DNA of 64,000 nt from a virus (IMGVR_UViG_3300020416_000001:96001-160000); one strand, 5' to 3'. Shown: positions 3,195 to 43,652, counted from the stretch's first letter. The notes: generated by a model from the letters alone, not told the origin. A program made the numbers and translations.

Positions 3195-3389
3195 ATGCCA
3201 TCCATTCAAGCACAAGAGATTGTCAACAAAATTTTTTCTGGGAACAAAGATCTCAGTTCAGAGGTTGATGATGCAATGAAAGCGGTTACTGCCGATGCTC
3301 TAGAAGCAAAGAAAAAGGAAATCGCAGGCGGTTGGATGAAACCCGAAACTACAGAGGAACCAAATGAAACTGATCACGGAACAGATTGA
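3195..3389 (+). CDS. Small prohead core-like protein (gp67/gp68 position)
   Basis: 64 aa ORF between gp20 and gp21; CTAAATA late box upstream. Confidence 0.6.
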   Translation: MPSIQAQEIVNKIFSGNKDLSSEVDDAMKAVTADALEAKKKEIAGGWMKPETTEEPNETDHGTD

Positions 3390-4014
3390 AGACGTTCAGA
3401 TCCTCACTGAGGAAAAGAACGGCAAGAAAAATCTATACATAGAAGGAACTTTCTTACAAGGCGAGATTAAAAATCGCAATGGAAGAATGTACCCTATCAA
3501 CACACTCCGTCGTGAAGTTGATAAATATAACGAATCGTTTGTAAAGAACGGTCGCGCACTTGGAGAGTTGGGTCACCCTGACGGTCCTACTGTGAACCTT
3601 GATCGTGTCTCACACTTGATTACATCGCTTGTTCAAGAAGGTAATAACTTCAGAGGCAAGGCGAGAATCCTAGATACCCCTATGGGTAACATCGCCAAGA
3701 ACCTTTTAGGTGAAGGTGTGAAACTAGGAGTTTCCTCACGTGGCATTGGTTCACTCCAAGAAACTCGTGATGGATCAAAAGTAGTTGCTGATGATTTTAT
3801 GTTGGCAACCGCAGCAGATATTGTTGCTGACCCTTCAGCACCAGATGCTTTTGTTAATGGCATTATGGAAGGCAAAGAATGGATCTGGAATAACGGAATC
3901 ATTCAAGAGTCTGAAATTGCAAGTATGAAACAAAAGATTGACAATGCTGCGAACCACAAGATTCTTGAAGAGCGGAAGATTTCCGCGTTTTCAAAATTCT
4001 TAAACTCCCTGTGA
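3364..4014 (+). CDS. gp21: Prohead protease gp21
   Basis: NRNGRMYP, ALGELGHP, GVSSRG.GSL, DIVADPSAPDA. Confidence 0.97.
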   Translation: MKLITEQIEDVQILTEEKNGKKNLYIEGTFLQGEIKNRNGRMYPINTLRREVDKYNESFVKNGRALGELGHPDGPTVNLDRVSHLITSLVQEGNNFRGKARILDTPMGNIAKNLLGEGVKLGVSSRGIGSLQETRDGSKVVADDFMLATAADIVADPSAPDAFVNGIMEGKEWIWNNGIIQESEIASMKQKIDNAANHKILEERKISAFSKFLNSL

Positions 4015-33669: not shown

Positions 33670-34216
33670 TCATTTTATCAGGGTTTATGATGACGCTCTT
33701 CCCGAAGTTGTTTGCACTAATGCAATCAGAATGTTCGAGGAAGAGTCTCTTGAAGAGTTTGATAGAGAGGGTCGCCCTACCTTCTCTCAATTTAATATCA
33801 CAGATAAACTAGAGAAGACTGGTAACAAAGACTGGGATATTATTCAAACTGAAATGATCAAATCTTCTCACGATTTTGTGCAGAAGTATATGGATGATTG
33901 TGATTGTAGGCAATACTTTCCTATGAGAACATCACTCGAACAATTCAGAATCAAAAGATACAGAGCAGAGACACAGGACCAATTCAAATGGCACGTCGAT
34001 GTGGGAGACCATCAATCGGCAAAGCGTATGTTGGTTCTTTTCTGGTATCTTAATGACGTTGAAGAGGGTGGAGAAACTGAATTCAAGACGATGAAAGTTT
34101 CTGCTAAACGTGGTAGACTATTGATGTTCCCACCCACGTGGACATATCCTCACGCAGGACTTCCTGCAATCTCTAACACAAAATACATCGCGGGAACTTA
34201 CATACACTATGTCTAA
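33659..34216 (+). CDS. 2OG-Fe(II) oxygenase (prolyl-hydroxylase-like)
   Basis: [26 protein letters not shown]. Confidence 0.85.
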
Positions 34217-35591
34217 TTCTGTAGAAGATCTCGTTGTATCATCTTTATTGCACAACGTAGACTTCACGAGGAAAACACTTCCTCACATCAAAACAGAATA
34301 CTTTGAAAACTACAACAACAAAGTAATCTATGAGGAACTCAGTTCCTATTTTACTGAGTACGATAGTCTTCCATCTAAGGAAGCACTTCGTATTGAGATC
34401 GAGTCTCGTAGTGATCTAAATGAAACTACTTTCACTGAGATCAAACAGACTATTGATCTTTCAACTGAAGAACCACACGAGATTGATTGGTTAGTACACA
34501 CCTCTGAGAAATGGTGCCGTGATCGTGCCATTTATAATGCACTCCTAGAGTCTATTCAGATTGCTGATGGTAACTCTGAGACACAGGGTCGTGATGCTAT
34601 CCCTTCTATCCTTTCAAATGCTCTATCTGTCTCTTTTGATAATTCTGTTGGTCACGACTATCTTGATGATAGTGATCAACGTTACCAGTATTATCACAGG
34701 GTAGAAGAAAAGATTCCTTTTGATATTGAATTACTCAACAAGGTTACTAAGGGTGGTCTATCAAAGAAGACATTGAACGTAGCACTTGCAGGTACAGGTG
34801 TTGGTAAGAGTTTGTTTATGTGTCATTGTGCTGCTGCTAATCTTGCTGCAGGATACAACGTGTTATACATCACGTTGGAAATGGCAGAGGAAAAGATTGC
34901 TGAGCGTATTGATGCTAACCTTCTCAATGTAAACGTACAACAATTAGAGACACTACCTAAACCAATGTTCGATTCTAAGATCGAAAAGGTTCAAAAGAAA
35001 ACACAGGGTCGTCTTCTAATTAAAGAATATCCAACTGCATCTGCACACGTAGGACACTTCAAGTCTTTGCTACAAGAACTTTCTATCAAGAAATCATTTG
35101 TACCTGACATCATCTATGTGGACTACCTTAACATTTGTAGTTCATCAAGATATAAAGGTGCTATAGTAAACTCGTACACATTTGTAAAAGCGATTGCTGA
35201 AGAACTACGTGGACTTGCAGGTGAACATAATGTCCCAATCGTATCCGCTACTCAAACTACTCGTAGTGGTTATGGCAATTCTGATGTTGACCTGACAGAT
35301 ACTTCGGAGTCATTTGGACTCCCTGCAACAGCAGACTTTATGGTTGCTCTCATCTCTACCGAAGAGATGGAAGAGTTGAATCAGATTATGGTGAAACAAC
35401 TGAAGAATAGATATAATGACCCCACAGTCAACAAGAGATTTGTTGTGGGTATTGACAGAGCGAAGATGCGTCTGTATGATTGTGAAGAGCAAAAGAAGAT
35501 TGTCGATTCTGGTCAACCAGAAGAGACAGTTGATGCATCTGACATCCTATCCTTCTCTAACACCAAAAACTTTAACGATTTCAAAATTTAA
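34209..35591 (+). CDS. gp41: Replicative helicase gp41
   Basis: AGTGVGKS, TLEMAEE, SESFGLPATAD, QLKNRY. Confidence 0.97.
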   Translation: MSNSVEDLVVSSLLHNVDFTRKTLPHIKTEYFENYNNKVIYEELSSYFTEYDSLPSKEALRIEIESRSDLNETTFTEIKQTIDLSTEEPHEIDWLVHTSEKWCRDRAIYNALLESIQIADGNSETQGRDAIPSILSNALSVSFDNSVGHDYLDDSDQRYQYYHRVEEKIPFDIELLNKVTKGGLSKKTLNVALAGTGVGKSLFMCHCAAANLAAGYNVLYITLEMAEEKIAERIDANLLNVNVQQLETLPKPMFDSKIEKVQKKTQGRLLIKEYPTASAHVGHFKSLLQELSIKKSFVPDIIYVDYLNICSSSRYKGAIVNSYTFVKAIAEELRGLAGEHNVPIVSATQTTRSGYGNSDVDLTDTSESFGLPATADFMVALISTEEMEELNQIMVKQLKNRYNDPTVNKRFVVGIDRAKMRLYDCEEQKKIVDSGQPEETVDASDILSFSNTKNFNDFKI

Positions 35592-35593
35592 TT

Positions 35594-36172
35594 ATGGGTA
35601 TTGAACAACCTACCGAAGCAGACTTCCGAGAAGAACCCGCCAAATCTAAGGTGGAAGACTTCGAAAATCCTGCCGATAGGATTCCTGACGGGTTTCGTGA
35701 ACCTCAAGGGTTTCAAGCAAAGAAAGTTGACGAACGACGTAAGAAAAGTAAAAAGAAAAATGAACCCTTTGAGGTTGATTACAAACAGTATCTCAAATTT
35801 GTAGATACAACCACTAGCAAAGAGTCGAAAGACTTTGATACACTCATCGAACGTTATGAAGCACTTAAAGAAAGTGGATGTGATATTGAACGTCTTGACA
35901 CTGCTGCATCGGGTCTTGTTGCTGAGGGCGGAGAGTTTATGGAGATCGTTAAGAAACTCAAGTTCCAAGGCAAACCCTGGAATGAGGACAACAAAGAACA
36001 CCTCATCATCGAACTGGGTGATGTGATGTGGTATGTTGCTAACGCTTGTATCGCACTCGGTGTTGATCTTGATGAAGTTTGTTTCCGTAACACAGTCAAA
36101 CTTGCAACACGCTATCCTGAGGGAGAGTTCACAGTTGTTAGATCTGAAAACCGTAAGAAGGGGGACAGGTAA
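35594..36172 (+). CDS. mazG: MazG-like NTP pyrophosphohydrolase
   Basis: AEGGEFMEIVKK, ELGDVMWY. Confidence 0.92.
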   Translation: MGIEQPTEADFREEPAKSKVEDFENPADRIPDGFREPQGFQAKKVDERRKKSKKKNEPFEVDYKQYLKFVDTTTSKESKDFDTLIERYEALKESGCDIERLDTAASGLVAEGGEFMEIVKKLKFQGKPWNEDNKEHLIIELGDVMWYVANACIALGVDLDEVCFRNTVKLATRYPEGEFTVVRSENRKKGDR

Positions 36173-36264
36173 TGGAACTTTTAATTGGCACAGCGTGTGT
36201 TGGTGCAACAATGTACTATGGTTATCTTATGGCAAAATACTTTGATGCAAAGGAGGGCAAGTAA
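36172..36264 (+). CDS. 30-aa TM peptide
   Basis: TAATG coupling at both ends. Confidence 0.5.
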   Translation: MELLIGTACVGATMYYGYLMAKYFDAKEGK

Positions 36265-36476
36265 TGGGTGCTGAAATGTATGCAATTCCTCTAATGCTTG
36301 GTCAAGCAGCAAATGCGTGGAACGCAATCTCTTGGGAAGAATCTATTCCATTCCTAATTACTCTTATTGGTCTCTACTGGGTCAAGGTAAAGATTGATTC
36401 ATCAGTTGGACTCAGTAAGAAGAAAGGAAGACAACTCAAGAATATTATTAAGGAGGCAATAGAAGAGACTAAATGA
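36264..36476 (+). CDS. Small membrane protein
   Basis: GGAGG RBS, TM segment. Confidence 0.65.
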   Translation: MGAEMYAIPLMLGQAANAWNAISWEESIPFLITLIGLYWVKVKIDSSVGLSKKKGRQLKNIIKEAIEETK

Positions 36477-36760
36477 TTTTTTGGATTGGTTTCACCCTTA
36501 TGGTTTTGAATGAGGGTTTTGTAATGATGCGTCACGTATCTCCTTGGTTTGGAAGACGAAGGGATGACATCATCGCAAAGATTGGATCTAATGCTTGGTA
36601 TAGATTACACGGTACATTAGATTACGCTTGGATTGCACTAGTCACTATTGGATTGATCGTTTGTCCTAACAGACTGAATCATATAGCAGCACTAGCAGTC
36701 TTTTGGATAGGTTCTTTCTCAGTATTCTATCTACCTAGATGGAAGAGACGCAGGAGATAA
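36473..36760 (+). CDS. Multi-TM hypothetical protein
   Basis: Three hydrophobic segments. Confidence 0.7.
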   Translation: MIFWIGFTLMVLNEGFVMMRHVSPWFGRRRDDIIAKIGSNAWYRLHGTLDYAWIALVTIGLIVCPNRLNHIAALAVFWIGSFSVFYLPRWKRRRR

Positions 36761-36786
36761 ATAAAACTGGTTCGAGATGGATCATT

Positions 36787-36823
36787 GGGGGGTGCTTGAC
36801 ACCCTCCTTTTTTATGCTATACT
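36787..36823 (+). promoter_or_regulatory. Terminator hairpin overlapping a TTGACA/TGcTATACT promoter
   Basis: GGGGGGTG-CTTGA-CACCCTCC-T6; extended -10. Confidence 0.6.
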
Positions 36824-36853
36824 ATATTTGTAAGGCAAGGACGCTTGTTTTAC

Positions 36854-37023
36854 TGGGAGTGACTGAATAACCCTGTTGGAATTAGGCGGGGTAATGTAAA
36901 CGGTCAGGGGTGGTGCCCGCTTCTTCGGAAGAACTTCTTACCAGAAGGACTGTTGTTGTTATGTACTAATTTTCGCACTAGCGATTCCCATAACTTGTAG
37001 GTATAATGTATTCCTACCTCCCA
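36854..37023 (+). ncRNA. manA RNA: manA-type structured RNA
   Basis: TGGGAGTGACTGAATAA...GGTGGTG...CCTACCTCCCA; ends pair; near mazG. Recognised from recalled consensus. Confidence 0.7.
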
Positions 37024-37045
37024 CCCAACCTTACATATCAGGTCT

Positions 37046-37573
37046 ATGAATATCTTCGTTACTGATCCTGATCCAATAGCATCTGCCAGAGTTTTACCTG
37101 ACAAGCACATTGTCAAAATGCCCTTAGAAACCTGTCAGATGCTTTCTATTGTCGCATCAGAGAAGTGGGGTCACGGTTTCGGTGACCTACCAAAACTTGA
37201 CGGTACTCCTTACAAGACAGACAAGGGTGCCTTTCGTAATCATCCCTGTACAGTATGGGCAAACAGTTTTGTACTCAACTGGCGATGGTTAATCACTCAC
37301 GGTCTTGCACTTTGCAATGAATACACTCTTCGCTATGGTAAAATTCATTCGTGTCAATCTACTATCGAACACGCACGTAAGATATTTCCTTGTGGCGATC
37401 CTACTGGCAGGAGTGGCAAGCATCCTACACCCTTCGCAAGAGCGATGTACGATGAATTCAAACACGACCAGTCAATAGATACATTCACTGCATATAAAAG
37501 GTATATCGCTGCAAAACCTTGGGTCAAAGATAACTATCTTAGAATCCCAGAACGTAAACCAGATTGGGTTTGA
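37046..37573 (+). CDS. Pyrimidine-dimer DNA glycosylase (DenV-family-like)
   Basis: MNIF...P..SA..LPDKHIVKM.LE..QML, HPCT.W, EY..RYGK.H. Confidence 0.75.
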   Translation: MNIFVTDPDPIASARVLPDKHIVKMPLETCQMLSIVASEKWGHGFGDLPKLDGTPYKTDKGAFRNHPCTVWANSFVLNWRWLITHGLALCNEYTLRYGKIHSCQSTIEHARKIFPCGDPTGRSGKHPTPFARAMYDEFKHDQSIDTFTAYKRYIAAKPWVKDNYLRIPERKPDWV

Positions 37574-37599
37574 TAAATAATTAAAAATCTGCACCCGAA

Positions 37600-38433
37600 A
37601 TGGCAAACAAAGGGTTACAATTTGAACACGCAGTGATGTACTCGGCAACGAGTAAGATAATTAACAAGAGTGCTCAGAACCAAAAAGACTTTGAACAAGC
37701 AGCAGGACGAATCAACGCTATCTCTGGCGACATTCGTGCTGCTGCTGATCGCATTGTTGAGTCAATGGCACCATCAGGTAATAATATTGAAGCGAGGCAA
37801 ACATACTACAAGTCATTTGAAAAAATGTCTGGTGGTGGAGAAGAACCTAAGACTGACGTCAAGTTTAAGTCAGGTGGTACGACCTACCTATGCTCTATGA
37901 AATGGGGTAAATCGTATCAGTTAACATCTGCAGGTATTGATAAGTCAACTGCAGTGTTTCAAAAAGTATTAGCAAAGACTGCTAAGGATTGTGGAGGTGG
38001 TGCAACTGATGCACAGACACTTGGATACCTACAACTAATCCTTGAGAAGATCAACAACAAATGTGAGAACGCAAAAGGAACTGTAGATCAACCTACTGCT
38101 AAAAAGATACTAAGTGATATAAAAAAGGCAGGTGGATTGAATGAACAGTTACAAGAAGTGTTAGGTTCAAAGAAGAAACCTGATGGTGCTGCTGCATATG
38201 ATTGTTTCAAGTATAATTTGACACACGAATGTATGACAGGTGCTTTGTTATTCAATGGTGATGAAAGATCAGCAACACATATACTGACAGAGACAGGTGT
38301 AAAACCTATAGATGAGAAGGCAGTCAGAGACGTGATGAAACAGGCAGGTGTCAGGATGGCATTGAAGGGCAGAGGTAAGGACAAAGTTACAGGTGTCCGT
38401 CAGAATGCCATTGTGATTCGATACGAGGTATAA
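37600..38433 (+). CDS. Hypothetical protein, possible PD-(D/E)xK-like nuclease
   Basis: G..FE near the N-terminus, EPKTD, SMK; late box upstream. Confidence 0.55.
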   Translation: MANKGLQFEHAVMYSATSKIINKSAQNQKDFEQAAGRINAISGDIRAAADRIVESMAPSGNNIEARQTYYKSFEKMSGGGEEPKTDVKFKSGGTTYLCSMKWGKSYQLTSAGIDKSTAVFQKVLAKTAKDCGGGATDAQTLGYLQLILEKINNKCENAKGTVDQPTAKKILSDIKKAGGLNEQLQEVLGSKKKPDGAAAYDCFKYNLTHECMTGALLFNGDERSATHILTETGVKPIDEKAVRDVMKQAGVRMALKGRGKDKVTGVRQNAIVIRYEV

Positions 38434-38440
38434 TATAGGT

Positions 38441-39634
38441 ATGGCAAAGCAGAATACACACCTCGAACACCTTGAGGATGACATTCTAAACCAAGGTTCT
38501 AAAGGAGGATTCAACGCTATAGCATTCCTCAGAGAACTTGGTAAGATGCTGACTGAACCACAGTCTGCAGTTAATATTACAACTAAGTGGGACGGTGCCC
38601 CTGCTGTCATTTGTGGTAAACATCCCTCAACTGGCAGGTTTTTTGTTGGAACCAAGGGTGTGTTTGCTAAGATGCCAAAGATTTGTGTGAGTGATGCTGA
38701 TGTAGATGAGTTCTACAGTGGTGAACTAGCAAAAAAATTAAAGATGTGCTTGCGTCTCCTTCCTCAACTACCTATCAATGGTGTAGTACAGGGTGATCTA
38801 TTGTTCACAAAGGGTGATGTCACTACAAAAGTTATGGGTAAGCAAAAGTGTCATACTTTTATGCCTAATACCATCACCTATGCTGTACCTGTAGACACTC
38901 CTATGGGTAAGAAAGTATCAAGAAGTTCTCTCGGTATTGTATTCCATACATCATATACAGGTGGTCCTACTCTAAGAGATATGACCCCTGGTTTTGGTGT
39001 AAATGTGACCAAGATGCAGGCAGCACCTAACGTAGCAGTATTCTCTTCAGACTTTACTGACGCGACAGGTTCATCTGTATTCAAACCTGCAGATAAAAGC
39101 AAGTATGATCTTCTAGTCAACCGTGCTGAAGGTTCTCTCAAGCAAGCATCAAGATTTCTAGACATCCTACAAGATAAAGGAGAAGGAAAGTTTATGCTCT
39201 CTGCTATGTTCAAAGTATATTTCAACTCATTCATCCGTACTGGTAAACCTATTGTCAATGCACAGGCAGTTGCTGTAGGTTTCAATAAATTCTATACCGC
39301 AGCACTAGACAAAGAGATCTCTATGAAGAAAACAGATACAACTAAGAAAAAATATGAGACTATTAAACAGAATGGTCTTAGATTCTTGAAGCAAAATGCA
39401 CGTGCTGTCTATATGACTGTCGCATCTTATATGAATCTGATCGCTGCAAAGACTGTAGTCATCAAACAACTTGGAAAAGTGCAGGACATTGGTACATATA
39501 TCAAGACTGATAATGGTTATAGGGTAACTGCACCAGAGGGTTTTGTTGCAATCAAATCAGGTTCTGCACTCAAACTTGTAGACCGTTTGGAGTTCTCTAG
39601 AGCGAATTTCACAGTAGAAAAAAATTGGGGTTGA
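38441..39634 (+). CDS. Conserved phage protein with ATP-dependent ligase-like motifs
   Basis: HLEHLED; TKWDG (motif I), QGDLLF (III), EGFV (IV), LKLVDR (V). Confidence 0.65.
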   Translation: MAKQNTHLEHLEDDILNQGSKGGFNAIAFLRELGKMLTEPQSAVNITTKWDGAPAVICGKHPSTGRFFVGTKGVFAKMPKICVSDADVDEFYSGELAKKLKMCLRLLPQLPINGVVQGDLLFTKGDVTTKVMGKQKCHTFMPNTITYAVPVDTPMGKKVSRSSLGIVFHTSYTGGPTLRDMTPGFGVNVTKMQAAPNVAVFSSDFTDATGSSVFKPADKSKYDLLVNRAEGSLKQASRFLDILQDKGEGKFMLSAMFKVYFNSFIRTGKPIVNAQAVAVGFNKFYTAALDKEISMKKTDTTKKKYETIKQNGLRFLKQNARAVYMTVASYMNLIAAKTVVIKQLGKVQDIGTYIKTDNGYRVTAPEGFVAIKSGSALKLVDRLEFSRANFTVEKNWG

Positions 39635-39664
39635 TAAATAGATATGGAAAACACCAGTATATCA

Positions 39665-40825
39665 ATGAAGTTCAGTCAGTTTATAACTGAGGCACGCACC
39701 GCTGCAGGTGAAGTTGCTGCTAAGAGAGGACTCCAACACGTCGGACACGGATACTATGCTGACAGGCAGGGTAATATCGTTGCGAAGTCTGAAGGAGGAA
39801 ATCGTTTGGTGCCTGTATCTCCTGATGAGGCAGCAAAAGCACAACAAGGTGCTGAACAGGGTGCAGCAGAAGACGAGCATATCAATAGTGGTGAAGGTTT
39901 AGGACATATTGCTCTAACCTTTGGACGTTTCAATCCTCCTACTGTTGGTCACGAGAAACTACTGGACACTGTATCTGAACAGAACGCTGACAACTATAGA
40001 ATCTATCCATCACGTACTGTGGATCCTAAAAAGAACCCACTAGAACCTGATGTTAAGATTGATTTTATGACAAAGATGTTCCCCAAACATTCTGATGCTA
40101 TTGTCAACGATGGTGATATGTCTAACATCTTCAATGTACTTTCCAACCTTAACCAAGAGGGTTACTCAGGTGTAACTATGGTTGTTGGTTCTGATCGTGT
40201 ATCAGAATTCAAGTCATTACTTGAGAAGTATAACGGTCAGGCATATGAGTTTGAAGAACTCAATGTTATTTCTGCAGGAGAAAGAGATCCTGATGCAGAT
40301 GGTGTAGAAGGTATGAGTGCATCTAAGATGCGAGCATTCGCAGCGTCAGGTGACTTAGAAAGTTTTGCCCAAGGAGTTCCATCGTCAGCAAAGAAAATTG
40401 CTGAGCAACTAATGATGGAAGTCAGAGCGGGTATGGGTATTCAAGAACAGGAACAGGAGGAAGAGGTTGCAGAACTTTGGGACATCGCTCCTAAACTTGA
40501 TGCAGAGAACCTCCGTGAAGCGTTCTTTGAAGATAAAGTCTTTTCTGTTGGTTCTATTGTTGAACATCTGGACACAGGTGTCAGAGGAACTATCGTCAAG
40601 AAAGGAACAAATTATGTAATCTTTGAAACACCAGAAAAATATAAATTTAATGTCTGGTTAACTTCCATTATGGAAGTGAAGGAACTGCATAAGTCAGCAG
40701 ACGATGGCAGTGGTAACGACTGGAAGGTCGGCACTGATACATATAGACACGCGGTTCAGGCAATGACCCCTGGACAGATGGTCAAAAAGTTCAGTGACTT
40801 CAGAAAAATAGGGTCAACTAAATAG
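39665..40825 (+). CDS. HxGH cytidylyltransferase-family nucleotidyltransferase
   Basis: TFGRFNPPTVGHEKL, VVGSDR, MSASKMR. Confidence 0.85.
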   Translation: MKFSQFITEARTAAGEVAAKRGLQHVGHGYYADRQGNIVAKSEGGNRLVPVSPDEAAKAQQGAEQGAAEDEHINSGEGLGHIALTFGRFNPPTVGHEKLLDTVSEQNADNYRIYPSRTVDPKKNPLEPDVKIDFMTKMFPKHSDAIVNDGDMSNIFNVLSNLNQEGYSGVTMVVGSDRVSEFKSLLEKYNGQAYEFEELNVISAGERDPDADGVEGMSASKMRAFAASGDLESFAQGVPSSAKKIAEQLMMEVRAGMGIQEQEQEEEVAELWDIAPKLDAENLREAFFEDKVFSVGSIVEHLDTGVRGTIVKKGTNYVIFETPEKYKFNVWLTSIMEVKELHKSADDGSGNDWKVGTDTYRHAVQAMTPGQMVKKFSDFRKIGSTK

Positions 40826-40846
40826 TATTACGCAAATTTTCGACAG

Positions 40847-42802
40847 ATGGATTTAGAAATTACTTCGAAACTGCTGAAGTATTCACCTTCAGACGTACAA
40901 TCAGTTACTTACGTTGTTGAGTACGCAGAACATAACTACGAGGGAGAGGCACGTGATGCCTATCTCGCGAAGCGTCTTGTCACTCCAACAGAGAAGGCAA
41001 TCGCTGAAGTTATTATCGAAGGCAAGAAAGGTCTTTGGGCAAATATTCACGCTAAGCGTAAGCGTGGAGAGGCACCTGCTAAGAAAGGTGACAAGGATTA
41101 CCCCAAGACTCTTAACATTGAGCATCATCAAAAGGATGCTAATGGTAAAGTTATCGAGCACGATGACGAGGCACCTGGAACTCCTGCTAGTGTAGAGGAG
41201 CAAAAGGCACCACGTATGCAGAAAGGCGCGATGGCATATGACGGTCCTAACAAGGCAGCATCTGAAGCAAGAGATAGAATTCTTGCTAAGACAAAAGCAT
41301 TGAGAGCGAAGGCGAAAGCAAAGACTCAATCTGAGGCGCTTGAGATGACCAAGAAAGAGTATGATAAAATTCACAAAGATTTTAAGTCTGACGATCCTAA
41401 GAATCCAAGAACTACTAAGTATGTCCCAGGCAAGGGTACAGTATCAATGCCTGTGAAGTTCAAGGAGCAGGTCTCTGCGAATGCAGCAACACTTAATATG
41501 AAACCAAGTGCTGCATCTCCTAAGATCGATACACCTAAAGAGAAGGAGTCAACAACAGATCCTTGCTGCGATAACCAGAGAACAATCAAAGCAAAGGGTG
41601 TAACTCCTAAGACTCAGGTGGAAGAACAAAAAGGTAAAGGCAGTCTTAAACAAGCACGTAAGAACGTCGGAGCATCTACCTGTTGGGACGGTTACGTTGC
41701 TAAAGGCACCAAGATGAAGAACGGAAAACAAGTTCCTAATTGTGTCAAAGAAAGCGAGGAATGGGTATGGGATGTCGTTGATGAACTCGGAGATGAGTTT
41801 GACAACCTTACCGAACAAGATCTACAAGATGTTGTAGTAGAAGCACTCTTAGATTTTGATACACAAGAAAATCTATTTGAAGCAATCGACATCATTGATG
41901 ACGGATGTGAGTTGTTAACAGAGGCACCATCAAAAGACTCAGCGTTTCCTAACGTTGCAGTTCAAGCACCTAGGGGTGGATCAAAACCAACCCGTGCTTC
42001 AAGAGTAGACAGACTTAAGTCTGCTGCTAAGAAAGCAGGTGGAGTGGTTAGAAAAGGACTAGCAAAAGCAGGTTCTGCTGCTAAAGCAGGAGCAAAGGCA
42101 GGTGCTAAGGGAGCAGTTCGTGGTGCAGGTTATGCATCAGGTCTTGCACAACGTGCAGCATCTTCTGCTAAGTCTGAATTCTCCAAAGGTAGAGAGCGTG
42201 GTCTAAGAGGTTCATCATCTGGTGGATCTTCTAGTGGATCATCGTCCTCTGGTGGTGGTTCATCTTCTGGTGGATCATCATCTGGTGGTTCATCAGGTGG
42301 AGGAGGATCCTACTCAGGTGGATCATCTTCTGGATCTTCAAGTTCCTCGGGTACCTCAGGTGGTACACAGAAAAAATCTGGTCCTTCATTGCTAAGTCGT
42401 GCTGCAGGTGCAGTCGGCAGAGGTTTGAAGCGTGCTGTTAAAGGTGGCGCTAACCTAGCAAAGAAAGCAGTTGGTAAAACATCAAGAGCAATCTCTAAAG
42501 GATCTGACAAACTTGCAAGGAAACTCGGAGAATCTATGGCAGAATCAAAAACAGACAAGGTACGTCGTATCTTGAAACTACAGCAGGAAACTCTTGAACA
42601 CGATAGAGCACACGCAAAAGATGCTAGTGCTGCGGGTTGGAGAGAGAGACTTGCGTACACAAAATTTGTTATGGAAGAACCAAGTGCAGAACAACTCAAG
42701 AAGAGAGAAGTTCTAAAACAAACTAAGGAACTTACTAACAAAGGTAAGCACAAGGAAGCGTCTGAAATGTTCAAGAAGCACTTCCCTAACTTTGGTAAAT
42801 AG
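40847..42802 (+). CDS. Modular Lys-rich protein, probable internal head protein
   Basis: Short basic modules separated by x-x-E sites; GS-rich tract; late box. Confidence 0.7.
42209..42362 (+). repeat. Degenerate (GGSSS)n coding repeat
   Basis: Repeated ggtggttcatcttct-like units. Confidence 0.85.
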
Positions 42803-42804
42803 TA

Positions 42805-43248
42805 ATGCCTAAAAAAACAAAAATCATTATCAACCCCAAGAAGGAAGAACTGATGAAGGAAACCATCCGCCAACTTCTTCAGGCAGAACTCGCTGACCTG
42901 AAAGAACAATCCAAAAAGAAACTAGATCCTGTCGGTAAAGAAGACAAGGATATTGACAACGACGGTGACCACGATAAGTCAGATAAGTATCTGCTCAATC
43001 GTAGAAAGACTGTCGCTAAAGCAATGGGTAAGAAAACCCACATCTGTGCTAAGTATGTTGAGCATACTGAGTATGGTCTTTGCTACACAATTCCTGAGGC
43101 ACACACCTTGGTTGAGAAGGCAGACCATAGCGATGGATGCACTCACGAAGTAACTCACTACGACATCGTGGATGAGTCAGAACAAATGCATAGCAACATT
43201 CCTGTTGAAGATCTTAACGTTCTTGTCCAAGAAATGCATAAGCACTAA
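42805..43248 (+). CDS. Hypothetical late protein
   Basis: [24 protein letters not shown] module. Confidence 0.75.
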
Positions 43249-43652
43249 TGAAATCTTTCAAAGAGTACATTACAGAGTTGAATCGTTACGAGAAAGAGAC
43301 TGGTAAATCTACTGGTCCTAGTCACGGGCGTACTGGTGTCAACACTCCTAAGGCAGGCACACCCACTAAGAAGGGTGGATCTGGTAAGGACTCTCCTATC
43401 GCTTCCGTCAAAAGGATGGTAAGGAAGATGCAAGGTGGAGAAGTTGGTCAGATGAAGAAACAGAAAGGTGCAAAGTCAACTGCAGGTACTGGCAAGTACA
43501 AGGCAATGGCAGACAGGCGCAAGAATCAAAAAGATACCACTGCTGCAGATGCTAAGAAACGCGGATTCAAATCTACTAGGGATTACGTGAACACTATGGC
43601 ACGTTACGGTGGTAAAGATAACTATGATAGAGGACGCGGATTAGGATCATAA
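43248..43652 (+). CDS. Basic protein with capsid-targeting-like leader
   Basis: N-terminus [10 protein letters not shown]. Confidence 0.75.
   Translation: MKSFKEYITELNRYEKETGKSTGPSHGRTGVNTPKAGTPTKKGGSGKDSPIASVKRMVRKMQGGEVGQMKKQKGAKSTAGTGKYKAMADRRKNQKDTTAADAKKRGFKSTRDYVNTMARYGGKDNYDRGRGLGS

Follow-up and report, generated by a model that had tools for sequence, protein, structure and literature searches.

A 64,000-nucleotide stretch of DNA from an uncultured virus (IMGVR_UViG_3300020416_000001:96001-160000; hereafter the window, to which unqualified coordinates refer) carries three consecutive genes at positions 37600-40825 that we call gA, gB and gC. The second and third of these form a real two-enzyme unit that is conserved in very many phages. 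gB (38441-39634, + strand, 397 amino acids) is a DUF6267 protein that we place, from its predicted fold, among the lysine nucleotidyltransferases of the ligase superfamily; gC (39665-40825, + strand) is a divergent HIGH-superfamily nucleotidyltransferase; and gA (37600-38433, + strand, 277 amino acids) resembles PD-(D/E)xK-variant endonucleases of the HinP1I/MspI fold. With rather more belief than doubt, we read the locus as a late two-enzyme unit for healing and sealing breaks, in which gB would be the ligase-like member, gC would be tagged for the phage head and gA would be a nuclease in a fast-evolving slot. The trio had been singled out in an earlier note that was made from the sequence of the window. 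The window belongs to an uncultured viral genome of 171,756 bp (94% complete).

The match of gB to DUF6267 (PF19782) is strong (E = 6e-128; 427.7 bits at a cut-off of 27, covering model positions 1-376) and was repeated in a search of its own genome. An N-terminal HLEHLED (amino acids 7-13; 38459-38479) is followed by the ordered motifs of covalent nucleotidyltransferases: KWDG of motif I with Lys49 (amino acids 49-52; 38585-38596), QGD of motif III (38789-38797; part of QGDLLF at amino acids 117-122), Tyr147 of motif IIIa (within 38870-38887), EG of motif IV (39536-39541; EGFV at amino acids 366-369) and Lys378 of motif V (within 39569-39586; LKLVDR at amino acids 377-382). The earlier note had quoted HLEHLED, KWDG, QGDLLF, EGFV and LKLV, all of which lie where it placed them, and the key residues are invariant in 99 homologues. 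Across these representatives, which are 31-57% identical to gB, the invariant positions are H10, K49, D51, G52, G59, K72, D119, Y147, H169, E366, G367, K378 and F385; K49, D51, G52, D119, Y147, E366, G367 and K378 are the motif I lysine and key residues of ligase motifs III, IIIa, IV and V, and the single lysine of motif V is followed by a nearly invariant R382. The family is very large: it has 468 phage records and, in a library of representatives grouped at 50% identity, 2460 clusters. It is found mainly in cyanophages, as well as in phages of Pelagibacter, Methylophilales, Vibrio, Pseudoalteromonas and Stenotrophomonas. A search for DUF6267 or 'cytitidyltransferase' found no paper in the literature library used that mentions either.

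An AlphaFold model of gB, built on the alignment of the 99 representatives, reached a predicted local distance difference test score (pLDDT) of 94.4 and a predicted template-modelling score (pTM) of 0.92. When this model was compared exhaustively with 48,161 chains using VIA-align, the top 12 matches were all adenylyltransferase domains of RNA or DNA ligases (Z 5.8-8.5). The highest scores were those of NgrRnl (5cot; Z 8.5, 183 amino acids), REL1 (1xdn; 8.0) and Trl1 (6n0t, 7.6; another Trl1 match, 7.4), with T4 Rnl1 (6.9), T4 Rnl2 (6.5), archaeal RNA ligases and the Chlorella virus DNA ligase (6.1) below them; ligases account for about half of the top 50 matches. Foldseek against the predicted viral structures of BFVD returned members of the family first, including the 591-residue fused form of S-PM2, and the first annotated matches beyond the family, with unnamed proteins interspersed, were RNA ligases of Agrobacterium phage Atu_ph07 (E = 1.9e-3) and of giant viruses. 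A search of the ESM Atlas gave unnamed viral clusters only. Because the two programs agree, the list of ligases is pure and the catalytic residues are invariant, we regard these results, taken together, as making the predicted membership of gB in the ligase (covalent nucleotidyltransferase) superfamily solid at the fold level. The ligase-like fold that had been proposed for gB is thus supported by both VIA-align and the Foldseek search of BFVD.

The closest structural counterparts are the OB-less ATP-dependent RNA ligases (NgrRnl/Rnl5 5COT, Trypanosoma brucei REL1, T4 Rnl2, T4 Rnl1 and fungal Trl1), with which gB shares its predicted fold (Z 6.5-8.5 over 165-193 residues), the order of motifs I, III, IIIa, IV and V, the invariant lysine of KxDG and the lack of an OB domain: the model stops 15 residues past motif V with one helix. 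Unlike these enzymes, gB has no profile-level sequence similarity to them, carries Asp for Glu in motif III and one Lys in motif V, has an invariant HxxHxED N terminus and carries, instead of a separate C-terminal domain, a helical insert of about 130 residues between motifs IIIa and IV (five helices; amino acids 216-347). DUF6267 proteins also differ from them in that they usually bear a capsid-targeting leader and have a HIGH transferase as a separate or fused partner. Of the features of ATP-dependent DNA ligases and capping enzymes, gB has neither the OB-fold domain nor the DNA_ligase_A_M (PF01068) signature. Since no sequence method ties gB to any ligase family, DUF6267 would be a new family within the superfamily, outside the known ones. 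Short DUF6267 forms of about 295 amino acids (gp87 of S-CREM2, at L086:3977-4864, and many S-RIM and ACG-2014 records) have a much shorter middle region and keep all of the catalytic motifs, so the full-length helical insert appears to be dispensable for the core. The family-specific HxxHxED N terminus and the five-helix insert may substitute for a substrate-binding domain.

The pairing of gB with gC was assessed in 80 related IMG/VR loci and three isolate loci. A transferase lies downstream of DUF6267 on the same strand in 65 of the 70 informative loci, and in 42 of those it is adjacent, overlaps by 4-10 nt or is fused to DUF6267. The two proteins are fused in either order (P0260 and P0314 on the one hand, P0244, P0289, P0336 and P0370 on the other), and a single profile, phrog_455, covers both proteins. 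A prediction of the complex of gB with the core of gC gave no answer (interface score ipSAE 0.00), which is evidence neither way. The earlier note had named co-occurrence of the genes as a test of its reading; the gB-gC link is strong to the point of fusion, and gA is not linked as a family (12 of 63 loci; see below). In other phages the transferase can be part of larger enzymes, several of which bear capsid-targeting-like leaders: a HIGH domain with a RimK-type ATP-grasp domain and a putative zinc protease (L054:1737-3788), an AAA_33 P-loop kinase N-terminal to the HIGH domain (L035:7183-9924), Pol-beta-type nucleotidyltransferase domains with a HIGH domain (L055:6315-9176, L047:2874-5429 and L037:6210-8558) and fusions with DUF5824. 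Kinase and Pol-beta nucleotidyltransferase partners are typical of RNA-repair systems, and a kinase joined to a HIGH nucleotidyltransferase is also the NadR-like build of NAD+ (nicotinamide adenine dinucleotide) salvage. In a single clade of five loci (L057, L059, L072, L075 and L077), in which DUF6267 has the leader MKFTEYLTE or a similar one, the 5-6 kb downstream contain no HIGH transferase; in L072, DUF6267 is found near a methyltransferase, a sugar-nucleotidyltransferase, an APH-type kinase and a dehydroquinate-synthase-like gene.

gC matches the 'cytidyltransferase' profile phrog_395 (E = 1e-90) and TIGR00125 (E = 8e-5), and scores 17.6 bits against Pfam CTP_transf_like, under the cut-off of 21, which fused homologues exceed (27.7-30.8 bits). 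Its motifs are FGRFNPPTVGH (39920-39952), VVGSDR (40181-40198), SAGERD (40271-40288) and SASKMR (40316-40333), followed by a conserved C-terminal region from about 40478. The family invariants are GRxxPPxxGH, VGxDR, SxGxR and SxxxxR, and 19 homologues all keep G87, R88, P91, P92, G95, H96, S218 and R223 (counted from the ATG at 39665). The earlier description of this protein as an HxGH nucleotidyltransferase was right about the superfamily and wrong about the motif, which is TVGH here; homologues have T or H at its first position. The longest open reading frame (ORF) opens at 39644, where the earlier note had set the start, which is 21 nt too early: the most likely start is the ATG at 39665, giving 386 amino acids, because only 3 nt separate the ATG at 39644 from a late-promoter-like box and homologous ORFs begin at the later position (MKF..F..E).

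From this start, gC opens with MKFSQFITE (39665-39691, + strand), which resembles the T4 capsid-targeting sequence MKTYQEFIAE (PMC8442874) and has a predicted site for cleavage by a gp21-type protease after Glu9, before Ala10; a prohead protease of this type (Peptidase_S77) is encoded near the start of the window (3364-4014, + strand; PF03420, E = 2.8e-36 at 3421-3867). In the GenBank record, T4 ipII and ipIII begin with MKTYQEFIAEA. A strict leader pattern built on the T4 sequence, which in a control on 36 kb of T4 found ipII, ipIII and one false match, picks out only 4 ORFs in the 171.7-kb genome, all on the + strand, and gC at 39665 is among them. The other three, at window positions 43248-43652 and, outside the window, at genome positions 87820 and 88459, are candidates for internal head proteins by virtue of this leader; one begins with MKSFSEFLTE. 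Across the related loci, a looser pattern matched 27 of 65 transferase ORFs, compared with 30 of 457 other + strand ORFs, none of 128 minus-strand ORFs and none of 56 ORFs in the gA slot, and most DUF6267 representatives have such a leader directly before their HxxH motif. The virion proteome of the cyanophage S-CREM2 includes the 'cytidylyltransferase' gp154, detected with 3 peptides (PMC10665884); gp154 is a homologous transferase that starts with MKNFSSFLTE. Because of this T4-type capsid-targeting leader, on which the earlier note is silent, gC probably enters the prohead, is cleaved there after Glu9 and reaches the host along with the DNA as an injected head protein. It shares with T4 IPII, IPIII and Alt an N-terminal leader of some 10 residues that follows one pattern, the Glu|Ala junction, an upstream late box and a gp21-type protease, and differs from the T4 internal proteins, which are small and basic with no known enzymatic folds, in being a 43-kDa enzyme whose packaging and cleavage are here predictions. 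gA is not head-tagged.

The first gene of the trio falls in phrog_22045 and has no Pfam match. Its homologues form 109 clusters; K84, D86, C98, S99, K101 and E210 are invariant in 57 homologues, and E9 is kept in at least 90%. The residues of the E...KTD...SMK pattern that the earlier note had read as a PD-(D/E)xK variant are all present, as E9, K84-T85-D86 (37849-37857) and S99-M-K101 (37894-37902), with E210 as a further core residue, and the assignment is borne out at the fold level. The gA model (pLDDT 88.5) aligns in VIA-align with HinP1I (1ynm; Z 9.0, 182 amino acids, model positions 6-277), MspI (1sa3; Z 8.5, 191 amino acids) and HhaI (6uke; Z 6.3), and the next unrelated chain scores 5.2. 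These restriction enzymes surfaced only in the exhaustive VIA-align search; Foldseek against the PDB gave no match. As in these monomeric type IIP enzymes, the fold, with an N-terminal helix, a catalytic sheet and a recognition sheet, extends over the whole protein, the N-terminal helix carries a Glu, and D86 stands at the start of one strand and K101 at the end of the next, as in HhaI. Unlike them, gA has the invariant Ser99 in place of the second acid (TD-X12-SMK), is 10-14% identical and is a phage gene product, with a late box ahead of its gene. HinP1I and MspI presumably carry Gln and Asn at the position that matches Ser99. The catalytic pattern of HhaI is SD-X11-EAK (PMC7026639). Type II restriction-modification systems differ in a further respect, as gA has no methyltransferase partner among the scanned neighbours (none in the eight ORFs between 35594 and 43652).

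Clear homologues of gA fill the slot upstream of DUF6267 in 12 of the 63 loci that have an upstream ORF, and a gA hidden Markov model (HMM) matches 11 of 84 sources (83 other loci and this window). The slot holds at least 7 families that BLAST does not link, that is, at least six besides gA, and hhalign comparisons between clusters of these families were not significant (best E 0.013-0.7). In five other slot families the best local alignment to gA, again not significant, is the D-strand-turn-strand-SxK core; gp126 of HTVC008M is a remote gA homologue (hhalign 89%, E = 2e-6), and the slot protein of Stenotrophomonas phage DLP6 has PKSD...SHK. We read the slot as the very fast-evolving first gene of one operon, and such a hypervariable nuclease slot may mark an arms-race locus. 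The genome itself avoids many palindromes (CATG, 0 copies versus 584 expected; CCGG, 0 versus 114; AGCT, 11 versus 341), and GATATC, AGTACT, TTTAAA, GTATAC, CAATTG, TACGTA and CGATCG have zero copies versus 17-44 expected. The sets of avoided sites differ between related phage loci, which looks like pressure from host restriction systems. We considered whether the missing sites could point to gA as a restriction enzyme, and rejected them as support for this idea: avoided 4-mer palindromes do not track gA (L028 has gA and avoids none).

Late-promoter-like boxes (GATAAATA), which had been reported before the first and third genes, are confirmed at 37572-37579, 20 nt before the gA start codon, and at 39633-39640, overlapping the gB stop codon and 24-31 nt before the ATG at 39665, both on the + strand. 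ATAAATA occurs 20 times in the window compared with 9.6 expected, with 19 copies on the + strand. It lies within 45 nt upstream of the gA-slot gene in 24 of 57 related loci, of DUF6267 itself in 4 of 79 and of other + strand ORFs in 57 of 470. The box that overlaps the gB stop codon and precedes the transferase has the same layout in close relatives (L004-L008 and L012).

The gene order of the window is that of T4-like marine myoviruses. Upstream of the trio lies a DnaB-type helicase (34209-35591), and a MazG-like protein and a DenV-like pyrimidine-dimer glycosylase (37046-37573; Pfam E = 5.6e-14) immediately precede it; in T4, denV adjoins ipII and ipIII. The closest isolate by DUF6267 protein is Synechococcus virus S-PRM1 (61% amino-acid identity), and its annotation, like those of Prochlorococcus phage P-HM1 and Pelagibacter phage HTVC008M, lists DNA polymerase, UvsX and helicase, then a hypothetical protein, DUF6267 and 'cytidyltransferase'. 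The soil phage DLP6 has the same trio order, with a D..SxK protein, a leader-bearing DUF6267 and a transferase. Downstream of gC, a basic 651-amino-acid protein with Ser/Gly-rich low-complexity stretches (40847-42802) and a 147-amino-acid protein (42805-43248) match PHROG 'cytidyltransferase' profiles (phrog_764) solely outside the catalytic domain; regions like these seem to be the C-terminal extensions of long transferases (700-950 amino acids) in other phages.

In the mechanism that we propose, Lys49 of KWDG in gB would attack a nucleoside triphosphate (or a dinucleotide) to form an enzyme-nucleoside monophosphate adduct, and the nucleotide would then move from gB to a 5'-phosphate end, with sealing of the break. 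gC would work together with gB; the gp21-type protease would trim it after Glu9 in the prohead, and it would enter the cell along with the DNA. gA would be a single-active-site endonuclease of the HinP1I/MspI fold that heads the operon. The pair would amount to a kit that heals and seals nucleic-acid breaks at the start of infection or soon after, and we lean towards counter-defence through repair of RNA or nicked duplexes over replicative DNA joining. The earlier note had put forward repair, modification or counter-defence as possible functions. The analysis itself shows the predicted folds, the conserved residues, the linkage and fusions of the genes, the leader motif and the prohead protease gene; all of these activities, the packaging of gC in this phage, the substrate and any role of gA are inferred. 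The proposal recalls T4 Pnkp with Rnl1 and bacterial Pnkp/Hen1 in combining a phage-borne sealing enzyme with the logic of end processing, to which some relatives add a kinase or Pol-beta nucleotidyltransferase domain; it differs in pairing the sealing enzyme with a HIGH transferase, for which the known pathways have no place, and in that no phosphatase or kinase adjoins the pair here. To our knowledge, the repair enzymes of T4 are not head-tagged.

Several results weigh against this proposal. At the sequence level, the DUF6267 alignment compared with T4 Rnl2 by hhalign reached a probability of 0.1%, phmmer and profile searches of the PDB gave no usable match for gB, and the Pfam ligase models PF01068, PF01653 and PF09414 have zero matches in the genome (PF01068 and PF09414 even at E 1). 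Foldseek against the PDB likewise gave nothing significant for gB (best ligase T4 Rnl1, E = 0.33), individual structural Z-scores of 6-8.5 are in the middling range for VIA-align, and motifs III and V depart from the usual residues (Asp, not Glu; one Lys, not two). The best PDB profile match of gC, the Methanocaldococcus jannaschii enzyme MJ0541 (1f9a), is not significant (E = 0.15). gB and its close relatives have no leader, which in that lineage is borne by the transferase, and the leaderless short DUF6267 protein of S-CREM2 (gp87) was not detected in the virion proteome (PMC10665884). The tie of gA to the gB-gC pair is positional only, and no healing enzyme (phosphatase or kinase) is encoded beside the pair in this phage.

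MJ0541 is a nicotinamide mononucleotide (NMN) adenylyltransferase (NMNAT), and this type, represented also by NF006479, includes the nearest recognizable relatives of gC (a GRFQPFHKGH-like alignment in MJ0541); the cyanophage 'cytidyltransferase' has been termed an NMNAT homologue (PMC10665884). With archaeal-type NMNATs and the phage NMNAT-kinase and NMNAT-Nudix proteins, gC shares GRFxP(x)(H/T)xGH, a later SxSxxR, a similar core size and, in one relative, a kinase fusion; this long form, with its P-loop kinase N-terminal to the HIGH domain, has the NadR-like kinase-plus-NMNAT build that is known from jumbo phages (PMC7824862). gC differs from them in the VGxDR and SxGxR motifs that are invariant in its own family, in a conserved C-terminal region and in its capsid leader. 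In a rival reading, gC could be an NMNAT that rebuilds NAD+ upon DNA entry while host defences burn it, and gB would consume NAD+, perhaps as a ligase that draws AMP from this cofactor and hands the freed NMN back to gC for recharging, an arrangement in which tight fusion would suit cofactor channelling. We think such a supply or counter-depletion unit unlikely, as all NMNAT matches fall far below significance (that of NF006479 scores 15.6 bits at a cut-off of 164). Moreover, gB has no recognizable NAD+-ligase domain Ia (PF01653), the fused kinase belongs to AAA_33, which is also a polynucleotide-kinase-like family, and no NMN-making enzyme (NadV/NAMPT) is found among the ORFs scanned at 35594-43652, the genome not having been searched for one. 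We give only a slim chance to a joint scheme in which the pair is a virion-delivered nucleotidylation system, the HIGH transferase making a dinucleotide donor (NAD+ or an analogue) with which DUF6267 seals or tags nucleic-acid ends in the first minutes, and the upstream nuclease is the matching break-maker against host or rival nucleic acid; if true, the phage would be independent of host NAD+ and ligase and would resist defences based on the cleavage of tRNA or DNA or on the destruction of NAD+. It is similarly improbable that gB serves as the DNA ligase that is missing from cyanomyoviruses, closing Okazaki, recombination or debranching nicks before packaging, with gA as a debranching or repair nuclease and the two replacing T4 gp30 and gp49. 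In favour of this, the trio sits after gp43, uvsX, gp41, MazG and the DenV-like glycosylase, the genome has none of the three Pfam ligases named above, and four isolate and two complete uncultured DUF6267 genomes are without PF01068, with T4 having gp30 and no DUF6267. In addition, gp30 appears in a list of non-cyanophage core genes (PMC5349666), and one of the Joint Genome Institute (JGI) homologues of gA bears the name 'HJR/Mrr/RecB family endonuclease'. However, DLP6, which has a full DUF6267 (E = 1.4e-119) in the same trio order, additionally encodes a gp30-type ligase (E = 2.5e-15), and the role of DUF6267 as a simple gp30 replacement is therefore weakened. gB also has no OB or DNA-binding domain, RNA ligases rank above DNA ligases in both structure searches, and the leader on most family members and the position behind late boxes are ill-suited to a replication enzyme.

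Repair of sunlight damage would give the head tag another purpose: premade enzymes brought in with the DNA could, together with the DenV-like glycosylase directly upstream, form a fill-and-seal kit that mends ultraviolet lesions and nicks before transcription, and the fusion of the transferase to Pol-beta-type nucleotidyltransferase domains in other phages would fit such a role. We doubt this strongly. The DenV-like gene is near DUF6267 in this window only (none of 53 other loci for which 2.5 kb or more of upstream sequence is available has one), so that its adjacency was set aside as a conserved repair context; gB and gA have no leader here; and this phage's transferase has no polymerase domain. 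A more serious challenge, to which we give somewhat less than an even chance, is that the trio is not one unit and that gA is an independent, fast-turnover gene in a permissive slot, either a weapon against the DNA of the host or of rival phages or a selfish nuclease. The number of unlinked families in the slot, the few sources matched by the gA HMM, the consistent lack of a leader on slot proteins and the kinship of the gA fold with restriction enzymes all speak for independence. Set against them are the almost constant occupancy of the slot, its late box, which also serves gB (the 24 of 57 and 4 of 79 loci given above), the alignment of five other slot families at the SxK core, the remote homologue in HTVC008M, the PKSD..SHK protein that DLP6 keeps in the slot, and the lack of a restriction-like signature, palindrome avoidance being unrelated to the presence of gA.

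Among the records and loci of T4-like cyanophages and pelagiphages that we examined, most contain DUF6267 and a neighbouring 'cytidyltransferase', and both genes are annotated as hypothetical or by a guessed name, although the phages of these hosts are among the most abundant viruses of the sea. If our reading of the pair as a break-healing and sealing unit is true, DUF6267 would be a new and structurally odd branch of the ligase superfamily. It would also suggest that phages far from T4 employ T4-type capsid targeting to inject whole enzymes, beyond small basic proteins, and the first minutes of cyanophage infection, with possible repair or counter-defence, would then become directly testable.

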